A DNA stretch of 64,000 bases from a bacterium (GTDB lineage Bacteria > Patescibacteriota > Minisyncoccia > UBA6257 > JAGOQP01), in contig JAKAHY010000005.1 in NCBI GenBank assembly GCA_021814695.1, forward strand, positions 1,364 through 65,363, given 5' to 3'. The notes below the pieces were generated by a model that did no database searches, had not been told where the DNA came from, and saw only the letters and a list, made by a program, of their open reading frames with translations. Below, in pieces: positions 22,811 through 64,000 of this stretch (its first letter is position 1; each line of letters starts with the position of its first letter). Position numbers and translations under genes: made by a program.

Positions 22811-25800
22811 TTATTTGTTCATCACGAACGGTTTTGCCTCAAGAACATCTTCGTCTTTCGTATTATCATTAGTGTCTTTGCGGAAGAAAATCCAGTAGAT
22901 AAGGAATAGTAAAGCGATAAACAGAATAAGATCAAATATCCAATTTCCGAGCAAAGCTCCAAACGCGGTGATAACCGTAGCTCCTAAGGCCGGACCACTG
23001 CCGACAATTGAAGTCAGGTAGGCTGAAATAGACTGGAATCTTCCCCGAACATCATTAAAGTTAAGAACCGAAGAAAAGATTACGGTATCTCCGTTAGAAA
23101 GAGAATCCGAAGCAATTCCATCAATGCTTATAGCTGATTGGAAATTAGCCGCGACCGCCCCAAGATTGTAGGAAATCCCATTAGCATCGTGATTGAAGAA
23201 AGGATAGTTGGTTGAAGAAAATTCAGTTCCCGGAGGCAAGATAACTTTCAGAAATGCGTTAGATAAGTTGTATGTGCATCCGTTACGATAAGTGATAGTC
23301 AAAACGAAATGCTGTCCCGGAGTTAACTGACTGACGTTTATCGAAGGAACAAGCATGAGACACGAGAGTCCGGTAGTGGTCGGCTGAACAATGATCGGAT
23401 TAGTGGGAGTAACCGGATTTACGATGATAGTTTGCTGTTTGGCAGTCGTAAAACTCAATATTGAACCGTAAGCTGTTCCGGAGCCGTTCTGAGCCACTGC
23501 GCGATAGTAATAAGTAGTATTCTGAGCAAGTCCCGAAACTGCGGTTGAGAGATTTGCATATGAACTTCCAGCCCCAACGGGTTGACTGACGGTTTGTGAT
23601 CCGAGACTCATAGTTGTCCCGTATTCAAACCAACCGTTGGCAGAATTGCCATTGGGATTTACCTGCCCGTTAAGCAATGCCGACGTTTGATAAATATACG
23701 ATGCCTGATTGGTTATGACCAAAGGCGTAACGTTGTAGTTATTATTTCCTCCGGTAGAAAAACTCAATATCTGGCCGTAAGTCGTTCCGGAATCGTTTCT
23801 GGCTGCTGCGCGATAATAATAGGTAGTCCCTTGAGACAATCCTGAAACAGATTGATTGAAGTACTGGGTTCCGCTGTATGAACCGATGCTCTGCGAAAAA
23901 GTAGTGTTACCAAGATAGTTATAGTTGGTTCCATACTCAAACCAGGCGTAAGTATTTCCACCATTGGGGTTTACCTGACCATAAAGTGTAGCTGAATTGT
24001 AGGAGACGTTAGAGCTGTTGGTCTGAACATAAGGAGTGCTTCCGTTATAGCAGTTATTTCCATAACATCCGCCTCCGTTGTTTGTAGAGAAACTAAGAAT
24101 TGATCCGTAAGCGGTTCCGGCGCTATTTTGGGCGACAACCCGGTAATAATAAGTCGTGTTGTAGTTGAGTCCGGATATATAAGTAGAGACATTGATTGAG
24201 CTGTTGTTGGAACCGGCCGACTGATAGGAAGTCATGTTCCCTAAGTTAGTCGAAGCTCCATACTCAAACCAGTAGTTGGTGGAACAATTGTTCGGATTTA
24301 CCTGTCCGTTAAGTTGAGCCGAATTCTGATAAACATTTCCGACACTCAAAGACGAGGCCATCGGAGACGAACACGATCCTCCACTGCCTCCATTGGTTGT
24401 AAAGCTTAAAATTGAACCCTGAGAAGTTCCGTAGGAATTCTGAGCAACAATCCTGTAGTAATAAGTGGTGTTAGAAGAAAGATTTGATAAGCTTGCCGAA
24501 TAAGGTTGAGCGCTATTTCCGGAACCGGCTGATTGAAATCCGGTGGAATTACCCAAAGACTGGGAAGTTCCGTATTCAAACCAATATGATGTTGAAGCGC
24601 TGTTAGGATTTACGGTACCGGTTATCTGAGCCGAAGATTGAGAAAGATTATTCGTTCCGCCGGTAACCACAATAGGAGTATTTCCTCCTCCGCCTCCGCC
24701 ATTAGCAGTTGTGAAACTAAGAACTGATCCCTGGGTAGTTCCGTAAGAATTCTGGGCGACTACTCTAAAATAATAAGTAGTGTTAGCCGACAATCCCGTT
24801 ACACCAGCCAAAACATTTTGATTTGAAGTTCCGTTTCCGGCCGATTGAGCCGAAGTCGTATTACCCAAAGACTGGGAGGTCCCGTATTCGAACCAATATG
24901 ATGTTGAAGCGCTGTTGGGATTTACCGAACCATTAAGAGTCGCCGAAGTCTGAGAAACGTCGGAGGCTGAATTGGTAATCGCCAAAGGAGCCGATCCTTG
25001 ATGTGTCTGGCTGATTTGAACAGTAACGCTATCGGTTGCCAAACCGCTTGAATTGCTGCAAGAAATAGAATAGGTGGTCAAACTATAAATAGCTCCGGTT
25101 AAAACCGATCCCGAAGTTGCCCCTCCGGTAGAAAAATTACCTCCGGTAGCATGACATTCGGTGGCATTGGTCGAACTCCAATTTAAAGTTGAGGAACCGC
25201 CACTGGTTACAGTTGTCGGGTTAGCAGAGATATTAGCCGTCGGATATTGTGCGGGCGGATTACTTACACTAACAGTAACGCTATCGGTTGCCGAACCGCT
25301 TGAATTGCTGCAAGAAATAGAATAGGTGGTTGAGCTATAAAGGACTCCGGTTGAAGCAGATCCGGATGTCGCTCCTCCGGTAGAAAAATTACCTCTGGTA
25401 GCATGACATTCGGTGGCATTATTTGAACTCCATTGAATCGTAGATGAATTTCCGGAACCTATAATTGTCGGGTAGGCGGAAATATTCGCCGTCGGTTGTG
25501 AAACCGGAGGCGGATTGTTTATCACGCTTACGGTTGCATTAGCCTGAATGGAACCACCCGAAGAATTTGTACATTGAATTGAAAAAGTTGTGGTGCCAGC
25601 CAACGGAGAAACCTGGTCTTGTCCCTGGGTCGCGTTACTGGTAGAAAAACCGGCTCCGGCCAAAGCATGACATTCGGTGGCGTTGGTTGATGTCCAGTGC
25701 AGATAAGGAGCTGTTCCTAACGAAACCTGAGTTACGGCAGTGCCGTTGGGATACTCTGCCCAAAGATTAGCCGTGGGTTGCTGTTGCTGAATCGATTGTC

Positions 25801-26287
25801 CGGTAATGCTATAAAGTCCGGTTGTATAATATTCGATATTCCCGCTGCCCGGTAAAACATCCCCTACCCCGCCAAAACTGGCGCTCATGGGAGAAAGAGA
25901 GATGGTGTATCCCGGAGCTGCATAAATATCTACAGATTGCGAAATTGATGGCGCGTTTTGAGCCCAAATTGTTCCGGTTACTCTGATGTGATTACCGTCA
26001 CCGGTAGCGCTATAACTGGATTTGGCATCAATAGCGGTAACCGAAGAATTGTTTAAAAAGGTGAATTCGAAAGCAACCTGATCTCCAGGCTTCATATTAG
26101 TAAGCGATGTCGTCCAGTTGTATGTTCCGGCATATGCGTGATTTCCAACCGTAAACATTCCGGATTGAGAAAATGACGCTTGACCGGCAGCCAATGCAAA
26201 AGAAGGCACGAGCGAAGCCGCTACGCCTATAACTACGACCAAAATTGATGATATTTTGAATAATTTATTCATTTTAGAATTAGGCAT
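22811..26287 (-). CDS. Giant cell-surface protein with fibronectin-III-like repeats
   Basis: 1158 aa. Signal peptide; three Cys-containing about 50-aa repeats (NATECHA...SISC.NSSG); six or more about 100-aa repeats (YWFEYGTSQSLGN...TTYYFRVVAQNSYGT...LSFTT); C-terminal TM helix with a short charged tail. Confidence 0.8.
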   Translation of the reverse strand: MPNSKMNKLFKISSILVVVIGVAASLVPSFALAAGQASFSQSGMFTVGNHAYAGTYNWTTSLTNMKPGDQVAFEFTFLNNSSVTAIDAKSSYSATGDGNHIRVTGTIWAQNAPSISQSVDIYAAPGYTISLSPMSASFGGVGDVLPGSGNIEYYTTGLYSITGQSIQQQQPTANLWAEYPNGTAVTQVSLGTAPYLHWTSTNATECHALAGAGFSTSNATQGQDQVSPLAGTTTFSIQCTNSSGGSIQANATVSVINNPPPVSQPTANISAYPTIIGSGNSSTIQWSSNNATECHATRGNFSTGGATSGSASTGVLYSSTTYSISCSNSSGSATDSVTVSVSNPPAQYPTANISANPTTVTSGGSSTLNWSSTNATECHATGGNFSTGGATSGSVLTGAIYSLTTYSISCSNSSGLATDSVTVQISQTHQGSAPLAITNSASDVSQTSATLNGSVNPNSASTSYWFEYGTSQSLGNTTSAQSAGNGTSNQNVLAGVTGLSANTTYYFRVVAQNSYGTTQGSVLSFTTANGGGGGGNTPIVVTGGTNNLSQSSAQITGTVNPNSASTSYWFEYGTSQSLGNSTGFQSAGSGNSAQPYSASLSNLSSNTTYYYRIVAQNSYGTSQGSILSFTTNGGSGGSCSSPMASSLSVGNVYQNSAQLNGQVNPNNCSTNYWFEYGASTNLGNMTSYQSAGSNNSSINVSTYISGLNYNTTYYYRVVAQNSAGTAYGSILSFSTNNGGGCYGNNCYNGSTPYVQTNSSNVSYNSATLYGQVNPNGGNTYAWFEYGTNYNYLGNTTFSQSIGSYSGTQYFNQSVSGLSQGTTYYYRAAARNDSGTTYGQILSFSTGGNNNYNVTPLVITNQASYIYQTSALLNGQVNPNGNSANGWFEYGTTMSLGSQTVSQPVGAGSSYANLSTAVSGLAQNTTYYYRAVAQNGSGTAYGSILSFTTAKQQTIIVNPVTPTNPIIVQPTTTGLSCLMLVPSINVSQLTPGQHFVLTITYRNGCTYNLSNAFLKVILPPGTEFSSTNYPFFNHDANGISYNLGAVAANFQSAISIDGIASDSLSNGDTVIFSSVLNFNDVRGRFQSISAYLTSIVGSGPALGATVITAFGALLGNWIFDLILFIALLFLIYWIFFRKDTNDNTKDEDVLEAKPFVMNK

Positions 26288-52049: not shown

Positions 52050-52122
52050 GGGTGGCCTACGGGATTTGAACCCGTGATAACAGTGCCACAAACTGTTGTG
52101 TTACCACTACACTAAGGCCACC
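52050..52122 (-). tRNA. tRNA-His (anticodon GTG); G-1 not encoded
   Basis: rc GGTGGCCTTAGTGTAGTGGTAACACAACAGTTTGTGGCACTGTTATCACGGGTTCAAATCCCGTAGGCCACCC; anticodon stem ACAGT/ACTGT. Confidence 0.7.
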
Positions 52123-52217
52123 ATACAACTTACAAAGACACTATAAATTATCTCAAGATATATTTCAATACCATTTTTCTTGATTTTATCAATAGTTATC
52201 AATAGAATGGATGTATT

Positions 52218-52289
52218 GCCCCCATAGTTCAATGGATAGAACGACTCCCTTCTAAGGAGTAGATCTAGGTCCGATTCCTGGTGGGGGTA
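52218..52289 (+). tRNA. tRNA-Arg (anticodon TCT), non-canonical T-loop TCCGATT
   Basis: GCCCCCATAGTTCAATGGATAGAACGACTCCCTTCTAAGGAGTAGATCTAGGTCCGATTCCTGGTGGGGGTA; G1-U72 wobble. Confidence 0.6.
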
Positions 52290-52368: not shown

Positions 52369-52743
52369 TTATAAATCAAGTTTTCTACCCTTATAATTTA
52401 AAGCTTCTTTAATAAATTTTTTTTCGTCCCTACTGCTATGCTCTATCAAATGACAGTTAGCGCATAATAAAATACATTTCTTAATTTCGTTTTTTATAGA
52501 ATTCCAACTTTTATTTCCAACATTTCCAAGATTAAATTCTTTATTTTTTGGGTTTGTGTGGTGAAATTGGAAAGCTGATTGATTACCAGACCAACCACAT
52601 TTTTTACATTTTCCTCCAAGATATTTTATTGCAGCTAATTTTGTTCTATATCTCCTAATTTTTGTATTACAAGAACCACATCTGCTTCTGCACTTATTTT
52701 GATAATCTTTAAAATTATTTTTACAAAGCTTACATATTCGCAT
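52369..52743 (-). CDS. HNH endonuclease with N-terminal zinc fingers (homing-endonuclease-like)
   Basis: FQFHHTNP...N...N...KKCILLCANCHLIEH is a canonical HNH motif; CKLC...CGSC...CKKC zinc clusters; the region is markedly AT-rich. Confidence 0.7.
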   Translation of the reverse strand: MRICKLCKNNFKDYQNKCRSRCGSCNTKIRRYRTKLAAIKYLGGKCKKCGWSGNQSAFQFHHTNPKNKEFNLGNVGNKSWNSIKNEIKKCILLCANCHLIEHSSRDEKKFIKEALNYKGRKLDL

Positions 52744-53405: not shown

Positions 53406-53813
53406 CTAAAAGGCTTTTTTGTTCATCATGACCGATTCCACTAAATCCCCCACGAAAGGTAATTTATACCTTTCGCCTTTATACGCCTTAAACATAGTAA
53501 TCACCCACACCGCAAATCCAAGCAGTGAAAGCAGGCCACCGACAAACCAACCAAAAAATGGAATTATTCCTACGATAAAAGACAGGACATTGAGCGACAA
53601 AAACACGAAGATTGACTGAAGTGCGTGGAACCGAATAAAATCGTTTTTATTTTCTATAACCAGAAAAACAATCCCTCCAACCCAAGCAAACAGATAACAC
53701 AAGACCGCCTCTATATTTTCCGGCAATCCCAATGCCGTCTTCTTGTGATCGGCCTGGGATTCCTTAATTTTATCCCCGTGAACGTGGTTACTCTCTTTTT
53801 TTGTTTCGTCCAT
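53406..53813 (-). CDS. Membrane protein (hypothetical, 3-4 TM)
   Basis: 135 aa; charged N-terminus followed by hydrophobic helices. Confidence 0.45.
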   Translation of the reverse strand: MDETKKESNHVHGDKIKESQADHKKTALGLPENIEAVLCYLFAWVGGIVFLVIENKNDFIRFHALQSIFVFLSLNVLSFIVGIIPFFGWFVGGLLSLLGFAVWVITMFKAYKGERYKLPFVGDLVESVMMNKKAF

Positions 53814-53873
53814 AATATTTTGTTTAACTTATTGAATTATAACCTACCTTGGCTATACTGTATAGGTAAATTA

Positions 53874-53944
53874 CGGGCCGTAGTGTAACGGTAGCACGAG
53901 TGCTTTGGGAGTATTTAGTCCGGGTTCGAATCCCGGCGGCCCGA
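53874..53944 (+). tRNA. tRNA-Pro (anticodon TGG) with C1-G72 pair
   Basis: CGGGCCGTAGTGTAACGGTAGCACGAGTGCTTTGGGAGTATTTAGTCCGGGTTCGAATCCCGGCGGCCCGA; acceptor CGGGCCG/CGGCCCG is perfect. Confidence 0.75.
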
Positions 53945-53950
53945 CTTGAA

Positions 53951-53983
53951 CAAAATACTCTGCCTTGTGCAGAGTATTTTTTT
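53951..53983 (+). terminator. Terminator after tRNA-Pro
   Basis: aatactctgccttgtgcagagtatt followed by tttttttg. Confidence 0.6.
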
Positions 53984-54011
53984 GAGATTCAACCAAGATA
54001 AATCCGACATC

Positions 54012-55199
54012 TTAAACTCTGACCTTCTGCCTGGCTAATGCCGATTTTACTATTCCGTCAACCAATTCATCATAAGATATTCCGGATGCTTGAGCGGCCA
54101 TAGACATAATATCTTCCCGGGCCAAATATGGATTAAGGTTGGCCTCAAGAACGTAAAGCTTGCCGTCATTGTCCATTCTCATATCAATACGGGCATAATC
54201 GCGGACATCCAAGGCTCTGGCGACTTTTACCGCTAAATCGCCCATTTTCTTTTGAATCTCTTCCGGGAGCGTTTTTTTAAGGTCTTGTCCGTAATTAAAA
54301 TCTATTTTTTTGAACTCTTCCGACTTTTCGTCGATTTTGGCCTTGTTGGAATAAATTTTAGGTTTTCCTGCCGGCCATTTGGAAAAATCCAGCTCAACAA
54401 TAGACAGCGGCTTGGCATTACCGTCATCGCCTATAACCGAAACATAAAATTCCCTGCCATCAATAAATTCCTCCACCATAACGTCTCCCCCCAATGTTTC
54501 ATGAAGTTCTTTTACCTTCTTAACCAGAGATTCATAATTATTAGCGACAGAGTTATCGTCAATGCCTATAGAAGCATCTTCTCTAACCGGTTTTACAAAC
54601 AGTGGATATGTAAATCCTTTAGGTACTGCAACGTCCTGGCCGACGCGCACCACGAAAAAATCGGCATACGATATTCGATGGAAATCAAAAATCTTTTTAC
54701 TTACGTGTTTGTCTCCACTCAGAAAAAGCCCTCCCGATGTAGCTCCGGTAAATGGTATCCTGAACATTTCTATTAAGGCGGTAACATTGGAATCGAACCG
54801 GTCGTTGTTTCGGAAAGTTTCAACAAGATTAAAAATTAAATCCGGCTTTGCCTCTCTTATGCCGTTAGTTATCTTGTCGATGCTTTGATTAATCGGCAGA
54901 AGAGCCACCTGATATCCTCGGGATATAAGAACTTCTTCAACATTATCGACAACTTCGTCGTGAGTAGGAATCTGATTGGGATATTCCTGATAGAAAAGAA
55001 TCAGGATTTTTGTTACCGGTTTAGACAACAAATTTTTTTTGACGTCACCATCCCCGGACGAATTTAAAACCGGCGATGAAGGCGTCTGGACATCCATCTT
55101 CCTTGAAGAAATCTTTTGTAATTCCGGTCTGGAATTTAATTGCGTATCGGACATTGTTGTCTTTTTATTAACAATATCATAACGGATATTCAAATACAA
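54012..55199 (-). CDS. ddl: D-alanine--D-alanine ligase-like ATP-grasp enzyme (long N-terminal extension; start uncertain)
   Basis: ATP-grasp motifs (PLFVKPVREDASIGI, EEFIDGREFYVSV, YVLEANLNPYL). Confidence 0.65.
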   Translation of the reverse strand: MYLNIRYDIVNKKTTMSDTQLNSRPELQKISSRKMDVQTPSSPVLNSSGDGDVKKNLLSKPVTKILILFYQEYPNQIPTHDEVVDNVEEVLISRGYQVALLPINQSIDKITNGIREAKPDLIFNLVETFRNNDRFDSNVTALIEMFRIPFTGATSGGLFLSGDKHVSKKIFDFHRISYADFFVVRVGQDVAVPKGFTYPLFVKPVREDASIGIDDNSVANNYESLVKKVKELHETLGGDVMVEEFIDGREFYVSVIGDDGNAKPLSIVELDFSKWPAGKPKIYSNKAKIDEKSEEFKKIDFNYGQDLKKTLPEEIQKKMGDLAVKVARALDVRDYARIDMRMDNDGKLYVLEANLNPYLAREDIMSMAAQASGISYDELVDGIVKSALARQKVRV

Positions 55200-55255: not shown

Positions 55256-55645
55256 TTATTTCATTCCCAAGGTATCTCTGACTTTAGTGACAACGTCTTC
55301 GATTTTCCAATCGGATTTTATCAGATAGTATGCCGGCTCATCTTTGGCCACGGCCCAGGTAATTTTATCATCCGCCGTCAAGTTGGTAAGAATTATTATA
55401 GGAACTTTGCGGCCGTATACGTTTTCTTCCCTTAAACGCCTCATCATCTCCACCCCATCCATCTTTGGCATTGCCAAATCCAATAGGATAAGATCGGGGC
55501 GTTTTTCCAATGCGGTTCTCAGGCCTTCCGCTCCGTTTTTTGCCTCATGAACGGTAAATCCTTCCCGGATAAATTTTTCTGACAAGGCATTCAAGACCGA
55601 TGGCTCGTCTTCCACAATCAGCAGTGATTTTGCTTGCTGTTCCAT
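55256..55645 (-). CDS. Single-domain response regulator (CheY-like receiver)
   Basis: LLIVEDEP...DLILLDLAMPKMDG...VPIIILTN. Confidence 0.8.
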   Translation of the reverse strand: MEQQAKSLLIVEDEPSVLNALSEKFIREGFTVHEAKNGAEGLRTALEKRPDLILLDLAMPKMDGVEMMRRLREENVYGRKVPIIILTNLTADDKITWAVAKDEPAYYLIKSDWKIEDVVTKVRDTLGMK

Positions 55646-55712: not shown

Positions 55713-58700
55713 CTATATCAGCTTTTTAGTGCCTGATTTTTGAATCATCCCCTTAACAGGCAGAGAAACATAAAATTTCGTCCCTTTATTTTCTTTGGAT
55801 TCAAACCAAATTGAACCGCCGGATTTTTCGACTATTTCTTTGACTATATAAAGACCCAATCCGGTTCCATCGGTTTCAACCTCCCTTATATTATCTGCTC
55901 TGAAAAATTTCTCGAAAATCCTTGACTGCTGTCGTTCTGGAATCCCATAACCGCTATCGGAGACGGATATTATGATGTCATTCCCTATCTTATGAACCTC
56001 AACCTTGATCGACCCTTTGTTGGGCGTATATTTGACCGAATTTGAAATCAGATTCTGAAGCACCACGCGCATTAAACTTTGGTCAATACTAAGCAATCCT
56101 ATTGTTTTATCATATTGTTCTGTTAATTTTTGATGGCGCTTTTTTATTTCGTGTGAAAGCTCTTTTATTACGGATTTCAATATTTCGATGATATCGGTAG
56201 GTTTGGGTTCTATAGCAAAGGTTCCAAGCTCAATTCTAGAAACGTTAAGCAGAGACCCGACCAAATCGGCCATGCGCTTGCTCGAATGATAGATTTCCCC
56301 GAGATAATCTTTCTGTTTTTTATTAAGTTTACCGACGTCTTCATCCAATAACATTTCCGTATACCAATTTATTGCCGAGAGGGGCGTGCGTAATTGATGG
56401 GATGCCAGTGATACAAATTCTGACTTAGATTTATCAATCGCCCTTTCTTTTGTTACGTCGCGCTCAATTCCGACAAAGAATATAATATTTCCCTTTTCAT
56501 CAAGAATCGGAGCAATACTCATGACAGCCTGGTAAGACTCTCCCGATTTGCGCCTGTTTGTAACTTCTCCGGTAAATGATTTCTTTTCTTCCTTAATTGT
56601 CTTCCACATTGTTTTATAGAAATCCGCCGGCATCTGACCGCCCCACAATCTTGGGTTGGCTCCTATCATCTCGTTTATCGGATAACCCGTGATTCTGGAT
56701 GCCGCATTGTTGGCATAAAGAATTTTAGCGTCCGCATCGGTAATAATAATATGATCGGAAGCATTCTGAACCGCCAGCTTAAACTTCTCCATATCAGCAT
56801 TTACCTGTTTTAAATGCTCTTCACTGCGCTTAATTTCGGAAATATCATGAACGATTACCTGTATCGCTTTAACACCCTCAAAAACAACCGGAGCGGCAAT
56901 AACTTCAACATCAATGGGCGTGCCGTCGATTTTAAGGAACTTTTCGGCATTGAGAGAAACTGATTTGCCTGTTTCTATCATTTCCGAAATCCTTTGCTCG
57001 ACAACCTTTTGGCTATCAGGATGAACAAAGCTCATTGTTGGCCTACCTATCAAGTTCTCTGCCGATTTTGCCCCAAATAATCTCACAGCTGCCATATTAA
57101 CGAATAAAACGCTTTTTCCGGAATGAACAGCAATGGCATCGGGAGATAAATCCACTAACAAGCGGTAATTTTCTTCGCTCTTCTTCAGATTTTCTCTGGA
57201 GATGACTTCGTTTGTGACATCGGCATATATAGCCACAATATTTCCGTCGGGAGTTTTGTATATAAAATTTCTTCTCCAGGAATCCTTGCCGTTGTTGCTG
57301 TATTTTTTTTCGGGGAAATACTGGGAATTGCCGGTTTTATACACGTGCTTGAACACATCCACAATCCCCATTTGAACTGCTCCGGGGAATGCGCGGGTAA
57401 CATCTTTGCCTATAACATCCTGTTTTTTAACGCCTTCTATTTTTTCGGCAACAGAGCTGAAATCTTTTAATATAAAACTTTTACCGTCATCCTCGGTTTT
57501 ATAAACAACGACGGCTAATCCCAAATTATTTGTCATTTGGGTATATATCTCCTCACTTTCTATCAAACTTATTTGAGTTCGAATACTGCCTATCCCAAAG
57601 CCTATATCGTTGGCCAACTCGGTCAAAAGTTTTATTTCACTTTCACTAAACGCGTCCGGTTCCGAGGAATAAATATTTAATGCTCCAAAAATACCGGAAG
57701 CCAAAGGTATTGGAAAAGCCGCAGAAGATGCATACCCCCGCTTTGATGCCGCCTCTCTCCACAACACATATGATGGGTCGTTTAATATATCTTTCATAAC
57801 AGAAACCTTTCCGTATCTTATCGCAATTCCGGTTGGGCCCTGACCATATTCGTTGTCTCCCCAGGATATTTTAACGGAGCTAAGATACCCGTCTTCGTAT
57901 CCGACCTGAGCTATCGGTTTGACGGTTTTTTGAACATCATTTATTGCCGTTCCTATCCATGCCAGACGATAGCCACCGACATTAACCACAATGTCACAGA
58001 CTTTTTTTACAAATTCATCTTCGTTTTTTATACGGACCATCGCCTGGTTGCTTTCGCTAAGAACCCTAAGGGCGCGGCTGGTTCTGGCCATGGTTATCTC
58101 CGTCAATTTTCTATCTGTCATATCTTCAGAAAATATGGCCAACTGATAAACTTTGCCGGAAGAATCGTGTATGGGATAAATGCTATTGCGGAAATATCTT
58201 CCGGAACGAAAATCTTCGTACTTAGTGGGCTCGCCGCTATCAATAACCGCGGAAGCTCTGTCTCTGCGCACTTTGGCTAATTCCGGAGGAAAATACTCAT
58301 ATATTATTTTTCCGGACAATTCGCCGGGCTTCATATTAAAACGAGCTGCTCCGGATTCATTGGCAGTAATTATCCGTCCGTCCAAATCGATAAGATAGAC
58401 GGCTTCTACGGTAGCGTTGAGAATCGCACTGTTGACTTCATTGCTTTGTTTTAGCGCAGCTTCAATCTGGCGATGATGAGTAACGTCTCTAATTATGACC
58501 AAATTAAGTCCCGGCAAATAATGCGCCGTTGCCGTAACTTCCATATACCTGTTTTGACCGCTTATGGGACCCTTAAACATAAAATCGAATCTCATTTTCC
58601 CCTCCACCAAAAATCTATCCCATACTTTTCTATCGACATTTTTTTCGTCCGGAGAAATAAAATCAAAAACGGTATGGTGTAAAATCAGTTCTTTTTTTGA

Positions 58701-59897
58701 AAGACCGTGCATTGCAATTCCGGCAGAATTAGCATCAACAAAACGCCCGTCATCATCAATGACAAACATGGCGTCGGGAGCCTGTTCAAAGATAGATTTG
58801 AGCTTTGCTTCGCTGTCCTGAAGTTCTTTTGTTACTTTGTCGGCCAATCTCAACGCCCGCGAGCGCGATGTTAAAAATATAAAAATGATAAGAGATACCA
58901 GAAAGCTTGTTAAAATAGCGGCTATGGGGTATACGATAAGAAAAATTACATCCGAAGTTTTTACCCCAAATTGCGGAAGCGCTTTAAACTTTATGAGCCA
59001 TTGACGCCCCTGAAAATAAAAAGATTTTTGATATACAAACTGGGGAATAATCTGATTATTCGGATTGCTGTCAAAAAACGGATTGGCCGATGGATTATCG
59101 GTTATGTCATAAACTTCGTAATCAATATATTGTCCAAAAGAACTCAAAATAATTCCGGCCTCGCATTTATCAATGTCTGAAATAGCAAGGACAAATCCTC
59201 TCAATTGTCCTTGGCTGGTGGGAATAGTCGACGATTTATAATATATGGGCATAATCGTATCGACTCTTGAGTGATCACTATTCCACATCTTTTGAATAGG
59301 CGTTGCTACCGCGCGGCCACTACTGCCCGCTTTTTGTAAATCCTGTAGAAGTTGGGGTTGCGAAGAATAATCATATCCTTCCAAAACCGATGAGCTTTCG
59401 GTAAGCGGCGTAATATATTTGATTATGTAGTATTCGTCTTTATTTACATCGGGATGCAAGACAACGTCGGTCTGTTTTTTAAAAACGGTCGATGAATAAT
59501 CACCGGCAGTTTTTAATTCTGTTTTAATCTGGTCTTTGTTTATTTTTTTTATGTATCCCAATTCATCTATGCAGGATGTCACTAAAGACGCGGTTTGTCC
59601 TTGGGTGTATGCTGACCACTCTTCGGGGCTTATGGTATGAGGCATCGATTCATAGTATCCTTTGACACCGATAAGGATGGAGTTGCTAACATTTACTCGA
59701 TTAGTTATTTCGCCCACAACCCGATTAACCTCAGTATCAAACGCGGCCCTCCTCTCATACATAACCTGATCGAGTATTTTAGTCCAAAAAATATAAGTAA
59801 TAATCAAGAGAACAATAAAAACAGCGGTCGGTAAAATCGTTTTTTTTAAACTAAACACGCGAATTTTTTTATAAAGTTCGAGCCAGCTGTCACTCAT
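55713..59897 (-). CDS. Giant sensor histidine kinase (1394 aa) with periplasmic sensor domain, multiple PAS/GAF domains, HisKA and HATPase_c
   Basis: Two TM helices flank an extracytoplasmic domain of about 300 aa; H-box SHQLRTPLSAINWY; G-boxes DSGYGIP...GTGLGLYIVKEIV. Confidence 0.85.
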   Translation of the reverse strand: MSDSWLELYKKIRVFSLKKTILPTAVFIVLLIITYIFWTKILDQVMYERRAAFDTEVNRVVGEITNRVNVSNSILIGVKGYYESMPHTISPEEWSAYTQGQTASLVTSCIDELGYIKKINKDQIKTELKTAGDYSSTVFKKQTDVVLHPDVNKDEYYIIKYITPLTESSSVLEGYDYSSQPQLLQDLQKAGSSGRAVATPIQKMWNSDHSRVDTIMPIYYKSSTIPTSQGQLRGFVLAISDIDKCEAGIILSSFGQYIDYEVYDITDNPSANPFFDSNPNNQIIPQFVYQKSFYFQGRQWLIKFKALPQFGVKTSDVIFLIVYPIAAILTSFLVSLIIFIFLTSRSRALRLADKVTKELQDSEAKLKSIFEQAPDAMFVIDDDGRFVDANSAGIAMHGLSKKELILHHTVFDFISPDEKNVDRKVWDRFLVEGKMRFDFMFKGPISGQNRYMEVTATAHYLPGLNLVIIRDVTHHRQIEAALKQSNEVNSAILNATVEAVYLIDLDGRIITANESGAARFNMKPGELSGKIIYEYFPPELAKVRRDRASAVIDSGEPTKYEDFRSGRYFRNSIYPIHDSSGKVYQLAIFSEDMTDRKLTEITMARTSRALRVLSESNQAMVRIKNEDEFVKKVCDIVVNVGGYRLAWIGTAINDVQKTVKPIAQVGYEDGYLSSVKISWGDNEYGQGPTGIAIRYGKVSVMKDILNDPSYVLWREAASKRGYASSAAFPIPLASGIFGALNIYSSEPDAFSESEIKLLTELANDIGFGIGSIRTQISLIESEEIYTQMTNNLGLAVVVYKTEDDGKSFILKDFSSVAEKIEGVKKQDVIGKDVTRAFPGAVQMGIVDVFKHVYKTGNSQYFPEKKYSNNGKDSWRRNFIYKTPDGNIVAIYADVTNEVISRENLKKSEENYRLLVDLSPDAIAVHSGKSVLFVNMAAVRLFGAKSAENLIGRPTMSFVHPDSQKVVEQRISEMIETGKSVSLNAEKFLKIDGTPIDVEVIAAPVVFEGVKAIQVIVHDISEIKRSEEHLKQVNADMEKFKLAVQNASDHIIITDADAKILYANNAASRITGYPINEMIGANPRLWGGQMPADFYKTMWKTIKEEKKSFTGEVTNRRKSGESYQAVMSIAPILDEKGNIIFFVGIERDVTKERAIDKSKSEFVSLASHQLRTPLSAINWYTEMLLDEDVGKLNKKQKDYLGEIYHSSKRMADLVGSLLNVSRIELGTFAIEPKPTDIIEILKSVIKELSHEIKKRHQKLTEQYDKTIGLLSIDQSLMRVVLQNLISNSVKYTPNKGSIKVEVHKIGNDIIISVSDSGYGIPERQQSRIFEKFFRADNIREVETDGTGLGLYIVKEIVEKSGGSIWFESKENKGTKFYVSLPVKGMIQKSGTKKLI

Positions 59898-59950: not shown

Positions 59951-60322
59951 CTATTTTGACTTTATGGAGACTGTCTTAACCTTGGAAACGATCTCGTTAA
60001 TCGGGTGCTGCGCTTTGACAAAATAATCAACAGCCCCCAAAGAAAGAGCGCGTTTTATATCCTCATCTTCTCCTAAATTGGAAACTACAACAACGGGGAT
60101 GGTTTTGAGTGAATCTTCGGATTTCAATTCCGAGAGCACTTCAAAGCCGTTTTTTTTCGGCAAAACCAGATCAAGAACAATAACGTCGGGGTCAAAACTT
60201 TTGGCCAAATTAAGAGCCACCTCTCCGTCCGAAGCTATCTTTACGTCATAGTGGGCTTTTGAGAACTTTTCCTCAAAAACTTTTGCCAGTATTTGTTCGT
60301 CTTCAACAACTAAAATTTTCAT
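59951..60322 (-). CDS. Single-domain response regulator (CheY-like receiver)
   Basis: ILVVEDEQ...DVIVLDLVLPKKNG...PVVVVSN. Confidence 0.8.
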   Translation of the reverse strand: MKILVVEDEQILAKVFEEKFSKAHYDVKIASDGEVALNLAKSFDPDVIVLDLVLPKKNGFEVLSELKSEDSLKTIPVVVVSNLGEDEDIKRALSLGAVDYFVKAQHPINEIVSKVKTVSIKSK

Positions 60323-60369: not shown

Positions 60370-61824
60370 CTAACCTTCTATTTCCTCAATGTTACTCGCT
60401 ACATAATCTTTTATTTTATCCGCAGCCGCTTTAAGACGCTTTAAGGCAAATTTCATTTCTTCGGCTTCTCTTTCGTCTATTTTATCATCGGCATATTTTC
60501 CCAAAAGATTGTCTATCTCTTTTGTAATAATATTAAAGGATGTTATAACGTCTCTTTGAGCAATAACTATTCTCATCTGGCGTTTCTTTTTTTCAAGCCT
60601 TCCGACATACCAACCACTGGCAACTCCTAACATAATCAACACTATAATTGCCACAAAGAAAAAAGTTTTTGACACGCCTAGTCCACCGATCATAAAAAAC
60701 GGCTTTTCTTGAATGTAAAGATTTATCCGAGAAGCGGTGATGTTTCCGGCTTCATCAACGGCCTCAACAACAACAACGTGACTACCCGAACTTTGCGGAG
60801 GCAACACAAACGAGGTCAAAGGTGTCGAGGTTATTGTCTTACTGTCAATAACTATCCGGTAAAAAGCGATCCCGGAGGGCTGGTCCGTCGTTTCAAACGT
60901 CAGAGTCGGATTTATAACATCAGTATTATTACCCTCTTTAACCAGGGCATCAAATGGTTGGGGAGGGGCGGTATCAATGGATATTTTATAGTGAAGAGTC
61001 GGGCCCCATCCGATATCATTTTTAAATCTTACGTGCAAATACCACGCCCCATCATCCAAAGCTCCAAAAGTCTTGTTGTCAAAAAGACCTTCCGATTTAG
61101 TCGGGCTAAAAGCCGGGTCTTTATTTAAATCGGTCGCAATACCGGTAACATCCGGGGGTAAATCTATGTGGGTTATAAAATTAGAACTGACATTATACCA
61201 ACTTGATGAATCGGGATAGAGAGGAACTTGAATTGATGGCTTTTGAGGAAGTTTCCCTGTCGGAACCGCCGGTCTTGATACGGGCGTTATTTGCTGAGGA
61301 GTCGATGTCGGAGCGGTAATTATCTGAGTCCCCTGTGTAGTTGCAATGGTTATTTGTAAACCATTCATAGCCGTTAAAACATTTGACCCGCTTCCATCGC
61401 TTGCAGTTATAGCTCCATCTGTAAGAGATATATTCGCCTGACCCGCTCCCTTGACCACAAAAAATATTCTAAAGGCTTCCAATGATTTTCCGGTAAATCC
61501 CACAGTCGCTCCGGCCACAAATGTAACGGTTCCGGCATTATTATTTACGGTTGGATCCTGCAGCCAAAAATTAAATACCGAATTTGTTTTATCGGTGCTG
61601 GTAACACTTAAGATATCGGCCGGAAACTTTATTGTTGCCTGAACGGCATTGACACCGGCATTTTCGCTGTCGATTTTTACATCGACACTAAATTTATCCC
61701 CGATATTAAAAATATTTTGACTTGTAACAAGATTAATCGTTGCCGCCTTTGCCGATGGTGGCAACAGAGCAATAAAACAAATCGCAAATACGGCGGATAT
61801 TACAATTACTTTTTTATTTATCAT
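60370..61824 (-). CDS. Membrane-anchored surface protein with N-terminal cohesin-like domain
   Basis: Signal peptide; about 140-aa beta-rich domain (GDKFSVDVKIDSENAGVNAVQATIKFPADILSV...GTVTFVAGA...FRIFFVVKGAGQANISL) resembling type-I cohesin; Pro/Thr/Ser linker; C-terminal TM plus a cytoplasmic coiled-coil tail. Confidence 0.5.
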   Translation of the reverse strand: MINKKVIVISAVFAICFIALLPPSAKAATINLVTSQNIFNIGDKFSVDVKIDSENAGVNAVQATIKFPADILSVTSTDKTNSVFNFWLQDPTVNNNAGTVTFVAGATVGFTGKSLEAFRIFFVVKGAGQANISLTDGAITASDGSGSNVLTAMNGLQITIATTQGTQIITAPTSTPQQITPVSRPAVPTGKLPQKPSIQVPLYPDSSSWYNVSSNFITHIDLPPDVTGIATDLNKDPAFSPTKSEGLFDNKTFGALDDGAWYLHVRFKNDIGWGPTLHYKISIDTAPPQPFDALVKEGNNTDVINPTLTFETTDQPSGIAFYRIVIDSKTITSTPLTSFVLPPQSSGSHVVVVEAVDEAGNITASRINLYIQEKPFFMIGGLGVSKTFFFVAIIVLIMLGVASGWYVGRLEKKKRQMRIVIAQRDVITSFNIITKEIDNLLGKYADDKIDEREAEEMKFALKRLKAAADKIKDYVASNIEEIEG

Positions 61825-61864
61825 CAGATTTTGATTTGGTTTTACTTACGATGATTATAACACG

Positions 61865-64000
61865 TTATTTTTGCTGAAGAGTCCTCACAAAGATGCTGAA
61901 GTCTTGAACGTCCACTTTTCCGTCACCATTAAGATCATCCAGAGCTCTCGTTTTCGGATCAGTTGAGCTCCAGCGAGAAATAAATATGCTCCAATCTTTT
62001 ATATCTATTACTCCATCGTTATTGAAGTCCATATTCGGAGTAAATATATTGGTTATAGAAAACACTTGTTGGGGAGAAAAGTCGCTCTTGATGTAATCCG
62101 GCGATACTTGCCGAGTTGCGACCGTATGGCTTCCAAAATCAAGATTAGCGGTATTGACCAATACTTTATAGTTTCCTCTGGAATCTGCGGTAACGGTGTT
62201 GGATATAAGTTGTCCGTCTATTTCTGTTTCGATGTTATATCCGGGAGCGGCCAGTCCGATAATGCCCAGAAAATCTCCTTTGGTTATGGATGAACGTATA
62301 AGGCCCAGAGTCGGCGAGAGTAAAATATTTTGAACCTTCAACAGCTGACTCGGATCTGTAAGATTGGCACCGAAGATCTTGGCTTGAGTCGTACGATTGG
62401 AGCTGTCGGTCGCGACTATTGAATAAGAACTCGCTCCCGGAGGAAGCCCTCCGACAGATATAGAGAAGTTACCGTTTGGGGAAGCGGTAGACTGCTGCTG
62501 TATTGGAGTTTGTCCCCCGCCTTTAATTGCGATGATATTTATTTTTGCATTAGTAAAGGCCTTACCGGACAGCTGGACTCCGGAGATTGCCGGAGGAACA
62601 AAGCCTCCCGATATTTGTGCGCTTTGTGTTGTAGCAGGTCCGTAGGTAATGACAAAAGTAACCGTTTGTTGAGAAGAAACATCTAGGCCGGTACTGGCAA
62701 TATCCTGAAGAGAAAGAGTAATCGTTTCCAGTTTCGGATCCGATATATATATCGTTCCGACTCCATTGGTGATAGTTATTGGACCGGCTCCGGTAGCTGA
62801 ACCCGTCGTCACAAGTCTTACGTTTGAATGGTACAGAGTGTCGGTATTCCCGCTATCATCCTGAACTTTAACCGTAACAAGCATTGACGCTCCTACTGGG
62901 TATTGAGAGCTTAATGGCATTATATTTATTCGAGTCGCAACAATCGGAACGGTAGAAACAACAACCGTATCGGCAGCGTCCTGAATTCCGGAAGTTCCGT
63001 TGGCAATCGGCGTACCGTCGGAAGCTGTTATAACCCAAGTCCCGGGAGTTTCGTCAAAATACCAAAACTGAGCAGAAGATTGATTGTTGTTAAAAACAAT
63101 AAATGTTTCGGTGCCTCCACCGGAAGAGGCGTCATAAAATGCTGTAGTTGTTCCCGAAGACGATGAGTAAAGATATGCGGTAACGACTCCGGATGTCACG
63201 AGGTTATTATATTGATCTTTCCTGGTAATTGTATAACCCAAACGGGTTCCGGCAGTCATATTGCCCGGATCATCGAGAACAAATTTATAAATTGCTCCGG
63301 GCGTCACGGAAAATGTACTGGCAGAATCGGCAATACCGGATGATCCATCCGGAGCGGTAGCGTTGTCTGATGCGGTTACAGTTGTCGTAGCTGATTTCTC
63401 GTCATAATACCAGAAACTAACCGAAGAAGTTCCGCTGACAAAATCTATGGAAGTAATGGAACTGCCTCCACTGGCAGCATCATAAAAGTGGTACGTCCCG
63501 GAAGACATTGAATACAAATATGAAACTGTTGATCCGAGAGTAACGGCATTTCCGTACTGGTCTTTGCGAGTGAGCTCAAATCCAAGACGAGTTCCGGCAG
63601 CCATATTGCCCGGATTGTTTAATGCAAATTGAGCCACAGCTCCTGGATTAAACGTAGCAGTGCCGACTGAAGAAACGTTAAGGCCGGTATGCTGGGTATC
63701 TGAAAGCGATAAATTAACTGTTTCAGCAGTATGGTCGGAGATATCTATCGTGCCGACTCCGTTAACCATTGTCACCAATCCCCCTCCGGTTGCCGAACCG
63801 CTGGTAACAAGAGTGACGCTGCTGGTTGCGGTAGTATCCAAATTACCGCTGTTGTCCTGAGCTTGTATGGTTACCGTTATGGGGCCGTCAACGGTCCCGG
63901 CAGTTGTGGAAAGTATGACAAATTTTGTCGCAACGATAGGTGCCGCATTAACAGTCACTGAGTCCGTTCCGTCGGCAATTCCGGTTGCGCCATCAGGAGC
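61865..64000 (-). CDS. Giant Ig-repeat surface protein with C-terminal dockerin domain (N-terminus beyond the window end)
   Basis: C-terminus DFNNDGVIDIKDWSIFISRW...DLNGDGKVDVQDFSIFVRTL gives two canonical dockerin calcium-binding repeats. Upstream are repeated Ig-like modules of about 95 aa. The reading frame is open through 64000. Confidence 0.65.
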   Translation of the reverse strand, partial: APDGATGIADGTDSVTVNAAPIVATKFVILSTTAGTVDGPITVTIQAQDNSGNLDTTATSSVTLVTSGSATGGGLVTMVNGVGTIDISDHTAETVNLSLSDTQHTGLNVSSVGTATFNPGAVAQFALNNPGNMAAGTRLGFELTRKDQYGNAVTLGSTVSYLYSMSSGTYHFYDAASGGSSITSIDFVSGTSSVSFWYYDEKSATTTVTASDNATAPDGSSGIADSASTFSVTPGAIYKFVLDDPGNMTAGTRLGYTITRKDQYNNLVTSGVVTAYLYSSSSGTTTAFYDASSGGGTETFIVFNNNQSSAQFWYFDETPGTWVITASDGTPIANGTSGIQDAADTVVVSTVPIVATRINIMPLSSQYPVGASMLVTVKVQDDSGNTDTLYHSNVRLVTTGSATGAGPITITNGVGTIYISDPKLETITLSLQDIASTGLDVSSQQTVTFVITYGPATTQSAQISGGFVPPAISGVQLSGKAFTNAKINIIAIKGGGQTPIQQQSTASPNGNFSISVGGLPPGASSYSIVATDSSNRTTQAKIFGANLTDPSQLLKVQNILLSPTLGLIRSSITKGDFLGIIGLAAPGYNIETEIDGQLISNTVTADSRGNYKVLVNTANLDFGSHTVATRQVSPDYIKSDFSPQQVFSITNIFTPNMDFNNDGVIDIKDWSIFISRWSSTDPKTRALDDLNGDGKVDVQDFSIFVRTLQQK

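Follow-up and report, generated by a model that had tools for sequence, protein, structure and literature searches.

A probable one-to-one cohesin–dockerin surface tether in a Paceibacteria (CPR) bacterium

Introduction

What is the task of two neighbouring genes in a candidate phyla radiation (CPR) bacterium, when one encodes a very large secreted protein ending in a dockerin and the other a membrane protein beginning with a cohesin-like domain? This question is raised by one end of a 64,000-nucleotide stretch of DNA, called here the window, which corresponds to positions 1,364 to 65,363 of contig JAKAHY010000005.1 (assembly GCA_021814695.1). We refer to the large protein as the cargo and to the membrane protein as the anchor. 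In our assessment, the locus is probably a dedicated one-to-one cohesin–dockerin surface tether of a Paceibacteria (CPR) bacterium. The strongest and decisive support for the cohesin–dockerin reading is the conserved pairing of the two genes.

Surface building and host attachment in CPR/Patescibacteria are little known outside Saccharibacteria, where work has centred on type IV pili (PMC10633639). The same source mentions in passing an essential dockerin-domain protein of a Saccharibacterium, and notes no partner for it. Cohesin and dockerin proteins of another CPR group, Shapirobacterales, were interpreted as a cellulosome in a metaproteomic study (10.1101/2021.08.21.457207). In our literature search, these two mentions were the only ones found for CPR, and no paper was found on the cassette described here. 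Cohesin–dockerin pairs outside cellulosomes are established; the survey by Peer et al. (2009), Archaeoglobus fulgidus and the anaerobic methanotrophic (ANME) archaea are cited to this effect in PMC9012536 and PMC10066038, and a summary in the former reports that archaeal non-cellulosomal pairs bind specifically.

The gene pair and its conservation

The two genes lie at the end of the window as follows:

61865..64000, minus strand: 3' part of the cargo gene, encoding a very large secreted repeat protein; the frame is open to base 64000
61825..61864, minus strand: cargo–anchor intergenic gap of 40 nt, read from the sequence
60370..61824, minus strand: anchor gene, 484 amino acids (aa), encoding a cohesin-bearing type I membrane protein; ATG at 61824

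A preliminary description of this DNA, made from the letters alone, had placed the anchor gene 41 nt downstream of the cargo gene in the same orientation; the shared strand holds, and the gap is one nucleotide shorter.

Loci were collected from one genome per species. The search returned 80, giving 81 distinct loci when the window is counted, and upstream sequence was available in 80 of them. Nearly all carry labels of Parcubacteria-type CPR, namely Nomura-, Wolfe-, Colwell-, Yonath-, Staskawicz- and Jorgensenbacteria, with Harrison-, Adler-, Azam-, Magasanik-, Uhr- and Falkowbacteria among the further ones. These labels are record titles, some of them plainly generic or wrong, such as 'uncultured Gammaproteobacteria'. 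Five contigs with a CPR-type cassette, L051 (JAUGSS010000063.1), L043, L061, L081 and L082, are filed under Methylococcaceae or under that generic title; mis-binning or generic labelling may account for this filing, and co-binning of an epibiont with its host could do so as well.

A profile made from four dockerins matched exactly one open reading frame (ORF) per locus, always on the strand of the cohesin gene and upstream of it, and in all matched ORFs but one the dockerin lies at the C-terminus or a few residues from it. All 80 testable loci have a dockerin-ended gene upstream of the cohesin gene, on its strand, and the two are directly adjacent in 78. Of the latter, 74 satisfy a strict adjacency rule and four fail it only by an early start set by the ORF caller; in the other two loci a receiver gene stands between. 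The pairing was also seen in the reverse direction, as each of three dockerin proteins found independently with a dockerin profile is encoded directly upstream of a cohesin-family gene. That search yielded mainly short fragments at contig ends, and a homologue search with the cargo C-terminus gave only six proteins. In the 1.36 Mb of sampled loci, neither the profile nor a generic two-loop pattern detected a second dockerin, and no second cohesin gene was found, the sole extra match being the other half of a split gene.

The two modules also vary together. Distances between genomes for the cohesin and for the dockerin correlate with r = 0.67, or 0.52 after the rest of the anchor is regressed out. 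Additionally, a dockerin variant with a loop spacing of 41 residues occurs only alongside cohesins with a (G/A)DGTGAN motif (six loci, from the sequences). Such co-variation fits co-evolution of the two modules. As the dockerin scores above a curated cut-off and each of the two proteins has a large conserved family, the locus lies beyond chance resemblance.

The dockerin module

The dockerin occupies the last residues of the cargo:

61877..62032, minus strand: dockerin module at the extreme C-terminus of the cargo, Pfam Dockerin_1 (PF00404)
61994..62029, minus strand: calcium loop 1, DFNNDGVIDIKD, followed by the helix WSIFISRW
61901..61936, minus strand: calcium loop 2, DLNGDGKVDVQD, followed by the helix FSIFVRTL

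These last ~55 residues score 30.0 bits against PF00404, whose cut-off is 22.9 bits (E 5.8e-7), and the longer cargo product of locus L001 (GCA_027423305.1, the same organism) scores 28.4 bits; EF-hand families stay under their own Pfam cut-offs on this segment. Two 12-residue loops are spaced 31 residues apart, each followed by an amphipathic helix. In 76 of 78 partner proteins from other genomes, both repeats have D, N or S at the ligand positions 1, 3, 5, 9 and 12.

An AlphaFold2 model (m8d9737142bac) was made for the last 230 residues of the cargo from an alignment of seven sequences, with a mean predicted confidence (pLDDT) of 81; its dockerin part is of moderate confidence (pLDDT 66-84). 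In this model the dockerin is laid out as loop-helix, short helix, loop-helix, with the loop-borne helices at model residues 186-196 and 217-229. There is no entering helix: loop 1 comes directly after a beta strand and coil, and a short linker helix precedes loop 2. The modelled layout is of the dockerin type ('F-hand') and not that of an EF-hand. The textbook dockerin that the preliminary description had recognised at this end is thus borne out by a significant Pfam score, by the conserved calcium-ligand positions and by the layout of the model.

The anchor

The anchor is a type I membrane protein with a single N-terminal cohesin, a flexible linker, a two-domain stalk, a membrane helix and a conserved tail:

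61744..61824, minus strand: signal peptide, aa 1-27, ending AKA/A; from the sequence, with a model helix at aa 4-19
61336..61743, minus strand: cohesin domain, aa 28-163
61216..61335, minus strand: disordered linker rich in Pro, Thr and Gln, aa 164-203; pLDDT 41-43, length varying in the family alignment
60706..61215, minus strand: stalk of two beta-sandwiches, aa 204-288 and 289-373, the second Big_13-like; from the model
60601..60669, minus strand: single membrane helix, aa 386-408, followed by basic residues; from sequence and model
60373..60600, minus strand: conserved helical cytoplasmic tail, aa 409-484; from a hidden Markov model (HMM) of the tail

The AlphaFold2 model of the anchor (pLDDT 80.6) contains a beta-sandwich at aa 28-161 and a long helix that forms the membrane span and continues into the helical tail. 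Its N-terminal domain of ~140 residues has the flattened beta-sandwich (jelly-roll) fold of solved cohesins. The N-terminus is predicted to lie outside and the C-terminus inside, on the strength of the signal peptide and of the basic residues that follow the membrane helix. The anchor has no Pfam match to SLH, and the LPXTG motif is absent from its 484-aa sequence. The signal peptide, the Pro/Thr linker and the C-terminal membrane anchor had all been named in the preliminary description, and sequence and model agree on them, with a helical tail; the two further beta-sandwiches of the stalk had been missed.

Relatives of the anchor are numerous. In an alignment of 34 members of its family, which share 45-84% identity with the window anchor, 17 match the Pfam Cohesin family at E <= 0.01 (the best at 6.5e-10) and 27 match Big_13. 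A word-indexed search returned 426 relatives at E <= 0.001, many with a precomputed PF00963 assignment; NCBI gives the name 'cohesin domain-containing protein' to some, which come from metagenome-assembled genomes of Paceibacteria, Minisyncoccia or Parcubacteria. An exhaustive search gave 2258 cluster representatives at E <= 1e-30, among them some giant proteins with immunoglobulin-like (Ig-like) repeats.

The tail is conserved as well. Its HMM matches 75 of the 81 loci (E 1e-31 to 4e-3), with a tail length of 69-80 aa in 74. A zf-HC2 match at E 0.11 was treated as noise, and none of the known signalling domains matches the tail. In three relatives (L042 5193-7121, L079 1756-3675 and P0211), a PAS domain (PAS_9; E 8e-17, 1.8e-16 and 9.8e-15, respectively) stands in place of the 76-aa cytoplasmic tail. 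In L042 and L079, the PAS-tailed variants whose loci were read, no response regulator was seen beside the pair.

A different modification is found in the extracellular stalk of a subgroup of 660-690 aa (P0193, P0197, P0198, P0199 and P0241), which carries an SH3_3 insert (E 2.6e-14 to 7e-10) that may be a wall-binding element. Domains of this type often bind peptidoglycan, and since they occur in some of the stalks, the stalk may be viewed as spanning the cell wall.

The cargo

The cargo is a very large, Sec-exported protein of Ig-like and TIG-like repeats, and both calcium loops of its dockerin end are intact. Its gene ends in a TAA stop codon at 61867-61865, and it is cut by the end of the window, because the frame stays open to base 64000. 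In L001 the downstream genes are identical and the cargo reaches at least 1862 aa with its N-terminus still incomplete; this assembly and a second one both break within the repetitive cargo gene. Orthologues that are complete, with 1307-3054 aa, begin with signal peptides. Across the loci, complete partner proteins range from ~420 to more than 3000 aa, and the longest, an incomplete one, has 3304 aa.

Upstream of the dockerin, the following feature is predicted:

62048..62557, minus strand: two Ig-like beta-sandwich domains directly before the dockerin; from the AlphaFold2 model

The strands at model residues 5-169 form these two sandwiches. Among Foldseek matches of the cargo C-terminus, Ig tandems of adhesins dominate (Bap, MpIBP, SiiE and intimin); the search was uninformative on the short dockerin. 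According to a conservation profile of 67 loci, the C-terminal ~400 aa are conserved among the partner proteins, their last ~240 aa align nearly free of gaps, and conservation is highest in the dockerin. An Ig-like domain stands immediately before the dockerin and is conserved together with it; it may correspond to the X module of type II / III X–dockerin dyads, an Ig-like module that directly precedes the dockerin, stabilises it and contacts the cohesin.

In two loci (L086 3865-6432 and L088 3896-6297), the cargo is split into a repeat protein of ~690 aa and a separate dockerin ORF of 98-143 aa. The split may be genuine, or it may come from a frameshift or from an error of assembly.

The two-component module and the surrounding genes

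Downstream of the anchor gene, with short gaps and on the same strand, follow three genes of a two-component system and a hairpin:

59951..60322, minus strand: receiver-only response regulator, 123 aa; PF00072, E 5e-24
55713..59897, minus strand: sensor histidine kinase, 1394 aa, with CHASE, PAS, GAF, HisKA and HATPase domains
55256..55645, minus strand: second receiver-only response regulator, 129 aa
55218..55239, minus strand: terminator-like hairpin after the fifth gene (9 pairs, 7 of them G-C, and a T run); consensus match only

All five genes, from the cargo to the second regulator, are thus co-oriented on the minus strand. The hairpin is the strongest terminator-like one among those listed and the sole one between genes of the co-oriented cluster. 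Since an extended -10-like match, TGtTATAAT at 61862-61854 on the minus strand (a pattern match only), sits in the cargo–anchor gap, the anchor gene might also have its own transcription. No Shine-Dalgarno-like GGAGG was seen in the sequence upstream of the ATG at 61824.

In the 123-aa regulator, PF00072 covers aa 3-113, the sequence has the acidic pair (E7/D8), the phospho-acceptor Asp (D51), the Ser (S81) and the Lys (K103) of a receiver, and there is no output domain. The preliminary description had set the pair directly upstream of a regulator–kinase–regulator module, which is correct for the window, and the link with two-component genes proves to be conserved across genomes. In 57 of 80 loci, the gene next to the pair encodes a receiver-only regulator, downstream of the cohesin gene in 45 and upstream of the dockerin gene in 12. 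In 47 of 81 loci, a histidine kinase is encoded no more than 1.5 kb from the pair. Many of the loci without such a regulator are cut by contig ends or carry a hybrid receiver protein instead.

The remaining scanned window consists of housekeeping genes, including those for DnaK, the DNA polymerase III alpha subunit, SMC, GyrB, tRNA synthetases, a penicillin-binding protein (PBP) and GatB, together with nine tRNA genes. Directly after the two-component module, at 53406-55199 on the minus strand, lie a D-Ala-D-Ala ligase-like ATP-grasp gene and a gene for a MamF/MmsF-family membrane protein. In L003 and L005, the cassette instead comes after an mraZ-rsmH-PBP-murE cell-wall cluster. A second large protein of 1158 aa, with fibronectin-III-type and PhoD_N / purple-acid-phosphatase-N-like repeats, is encoded at 22811-26287 (minus strand), within the window's stretch of highest G+C content (0.46-0.48 against ~0.41). 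A Cys-rich ORF of 124 aa at 52369-52743 (minus strand) ends in CANCHLIEH, which resembles by eye an HNH-type nuclease motif, and adjoins two oppositely oriented tRNA genes (52051-52289).

Discussion

We propose that the dockerin of the exported cargo would bind the single cohesin of the anchor in a calcium-dependent manner, so that the cargo would be held non-covalently on the outside of the envelope. The cohesin would be lifted through the wall by the linker together with the two-domain stalk. Held in this way, the cargo may act as an adhesin or as a surface-coat protein. An adhesin would fit because the tandem Ig domains at the end of the cargo are similar to those of Bap, SiiE, intimin and an ice-binding adhesin and because the length of the protein varies greatly. 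The adjacent receiver-only regulator and PAS kinase may control the operon, or they may receive a signal from the tail of the anchor.

Several observations weigh against the tether as proposed. The window anchor itself has no Pfam Cohesin match up to E = 1, only a sub-threshold Big_13 match, and sequence searches of the PDB with the whole anchor and with the family profile gave insignificant matches only; for the cohesin-like domain read earlier in this protein, the modelled beta-sandwich fold agrees, and Pfam Cohesin matches come from its relatives. The 59-aa dockerin, compared with the PDB by sequence, found mostly EF-hand proteins, at E > 1e-4, and its sequence-only scores are similar for EF-hand proteins and for solved dockerins. 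As a plain sequence search fails to separate the two, the dockerin is assigned from its Pfam profile match, its layout and its genomic context. Shared ancestry could largely explain the co-variation of the two modules. The counts of dockerins and cohesins cover the sampled loci, and further dockerin proteins may exist elsewhere in the genomes. As to the role of the cargo, Pfam recognised almost nothing besides the dockerin in three cargo proteins.

It may also be asked whether the two proteins bind each other at all. The dockerin-like end could be a calcium-stabilised module, and the cohesin-like domain could bind, for instance, a glycan or a host protein. The EF-hand-like scores of the dockerin segment in PDB searches are in keeping with this, as is the generality of the cohesin fold, a beta-sandwich also present in carbohydrate-binding modules (structure match 2c4x). 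We nevertheless regard it as very unlikely, given that the gene pairing is strict in both directions, that dockerin and cohesin variants change together and that no other part of the partner protein is as well conserved as the dockerin. Even less probable, to the point that we reject it, is a small enzyme complex of the cellulosome type that would degrade polysaccharides. Cellulosomes are defined by their cohesin and dockerin modules, and the CPR proteins of Shapirobacterales were interpreted in this sense, but here a single cohesin meets a single dockerin partner with no further dockerins in the sampled loci. In addition, no glycoside hydrolase, carbohydrate-binding module or SLH domain exceeded its Pfam threshold, whether in the cargo and the anchor or in those window proteins that were scanned. 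The preliminary description had likewise preferred surface attachment to a cellulosome, and with neither enzymes nor multiple cohesins or dockerins detected, we agree.

Two other explanations keep the link between the proteins and assign it a different purpose. The large protein could be the building block of a CPR surface layer (S-layer), with the cohesin protein as its membrane attachment point. One conserved copy per locus across the class, the conserved C-terminal part of the partner proteins and the S-layer structures 8cka and 7ptp among the Foldseek matches speak for this, and electron cryomicroscopy of groundwater CPR cells reportedly showed an S-layer whose protein was not identified. 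The size range of the partner proteins is unusual for a lattice-forming protein, however, and the structural matches are generic Ig-like folds; we therefore consider the S-layer explanation doubtful. The anchor could instead be mainly a transmembrane signal transducer, in which occupancy of, or load on, the cohesin would be passed through the tail to the neighbouring PAS kinase and receiver, a role compatible with tethering. The conservation of the tail in sequence and length exceeds the need of a passive anchor. The replacement of the tail by a cytoplasmic PAS domain in three relatives, of which the two with loci that were read lack an adjacent regulator, the frequent proximity of regulator and kinase, and the co-orientation of the five window genes, with the only intergenic terminator-like hairpin after the last of them, point in the same direction. 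Against these stand the absence of a match between the tail and any known signalling domain and the roughly one quarter of loci without a regulator next to the pair, many of these being cut by contig ends; moreover, the neighbourhood is explained equally well by a two-component system that regulates the operon. On balance, we hold a mainly transducing role to be possible but unlikely. Because the PAS domain replaces the tail, which is evidence of the fusion type, the sequences do suggest, as a minority reading, that the anchor is in communication with the two-component system and not just under its control. A more specific and more tentative form is that the anchor is a contact or load sensor: engagement of a partner cell by the giant protein would be conveyed through the membrane helix and tail to the adjacent PAS kinase and the receiver-only regulators.

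The proposed tether can be compared with known cohesin–dockerin systems. Cellulosomal anchoring scaffoldins, such as SdbA, OlpA and OlpC of Clostridium thermocellum and ScaE of Ruminococcus flavefaciens, are attached by SLH domains or by sortase, whereas the anchor described here has a C-terminal membrane helix and a conserved tail. It carries one cohesin for one partner, in which no catalytic domain was detected, and its cassette is tied to a two-component system in a CPR host. Several dockerin-bearing enzymes, by which a scaffoldin is recognised, were not found within the sampled loci and the proteins scanned. The locus would work like an anchoring scaffoldin, yet without its defining features of an SLH or sortase anchor, multiple cohesins and enzyme partners; the comparison drawn in the preliminary description is retained as an analogy. 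The non-cellulosomal modules of the A. fulgidus pair, of the survey by Peer et al. (2009) and of ANME archaea are scattered among varied proteins, while the modules described here belong to a two-gene cassette that is fixed, as is the architecture of its anchor, and that is conserved throughout a class. The cohesin / FIVAR-dockerin complexes of Clostridium perfringens (GH33, GH84) join secreted glycoside hydrolases and, unlike the pair described here, have no membrane anchor.

A further likeness is with the RsgI-type sensors of C. thermocellum, which are single-pass membrane proteins that carry a binding module outside the cell and a signalling end in the cytoplasm and whose genes adjoin that of the signalling partner. 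In RsgI the cytoplasmic domain is N-terminal, the opposite orientation to that of the anchor, and RsgI is partnered by a sigma factor instead of a kinase and a receiver. Beyond the zf-HC2 match regarded above as noise, no relation in sequence between the anchor and RsgI was found.

Significance

The domain-level annotation of such proteins is already known from NCBI records; new are the fixed cassette, the membrane-anchored architecture with its conserved tail and the tie to signalling. One consequence is a caution, as cohesin and dockerin annotations in CPR genomes should not be taken as evidence of cellulose degradation. The cassette is a concrete candidate for the display of a large, length-variable surface protein, and it brings with it a built-in hypothesis of how that protein is held. 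In view of the two-component link and the PAS-tailed variants, signals might pass through the cohesin–dockerin joint, a possibility of which we know no earlier description. If this is true, host-dependent ultra-small bacteria would possess an attachment-sensing pathway built on a cohesin–dockerin joint.

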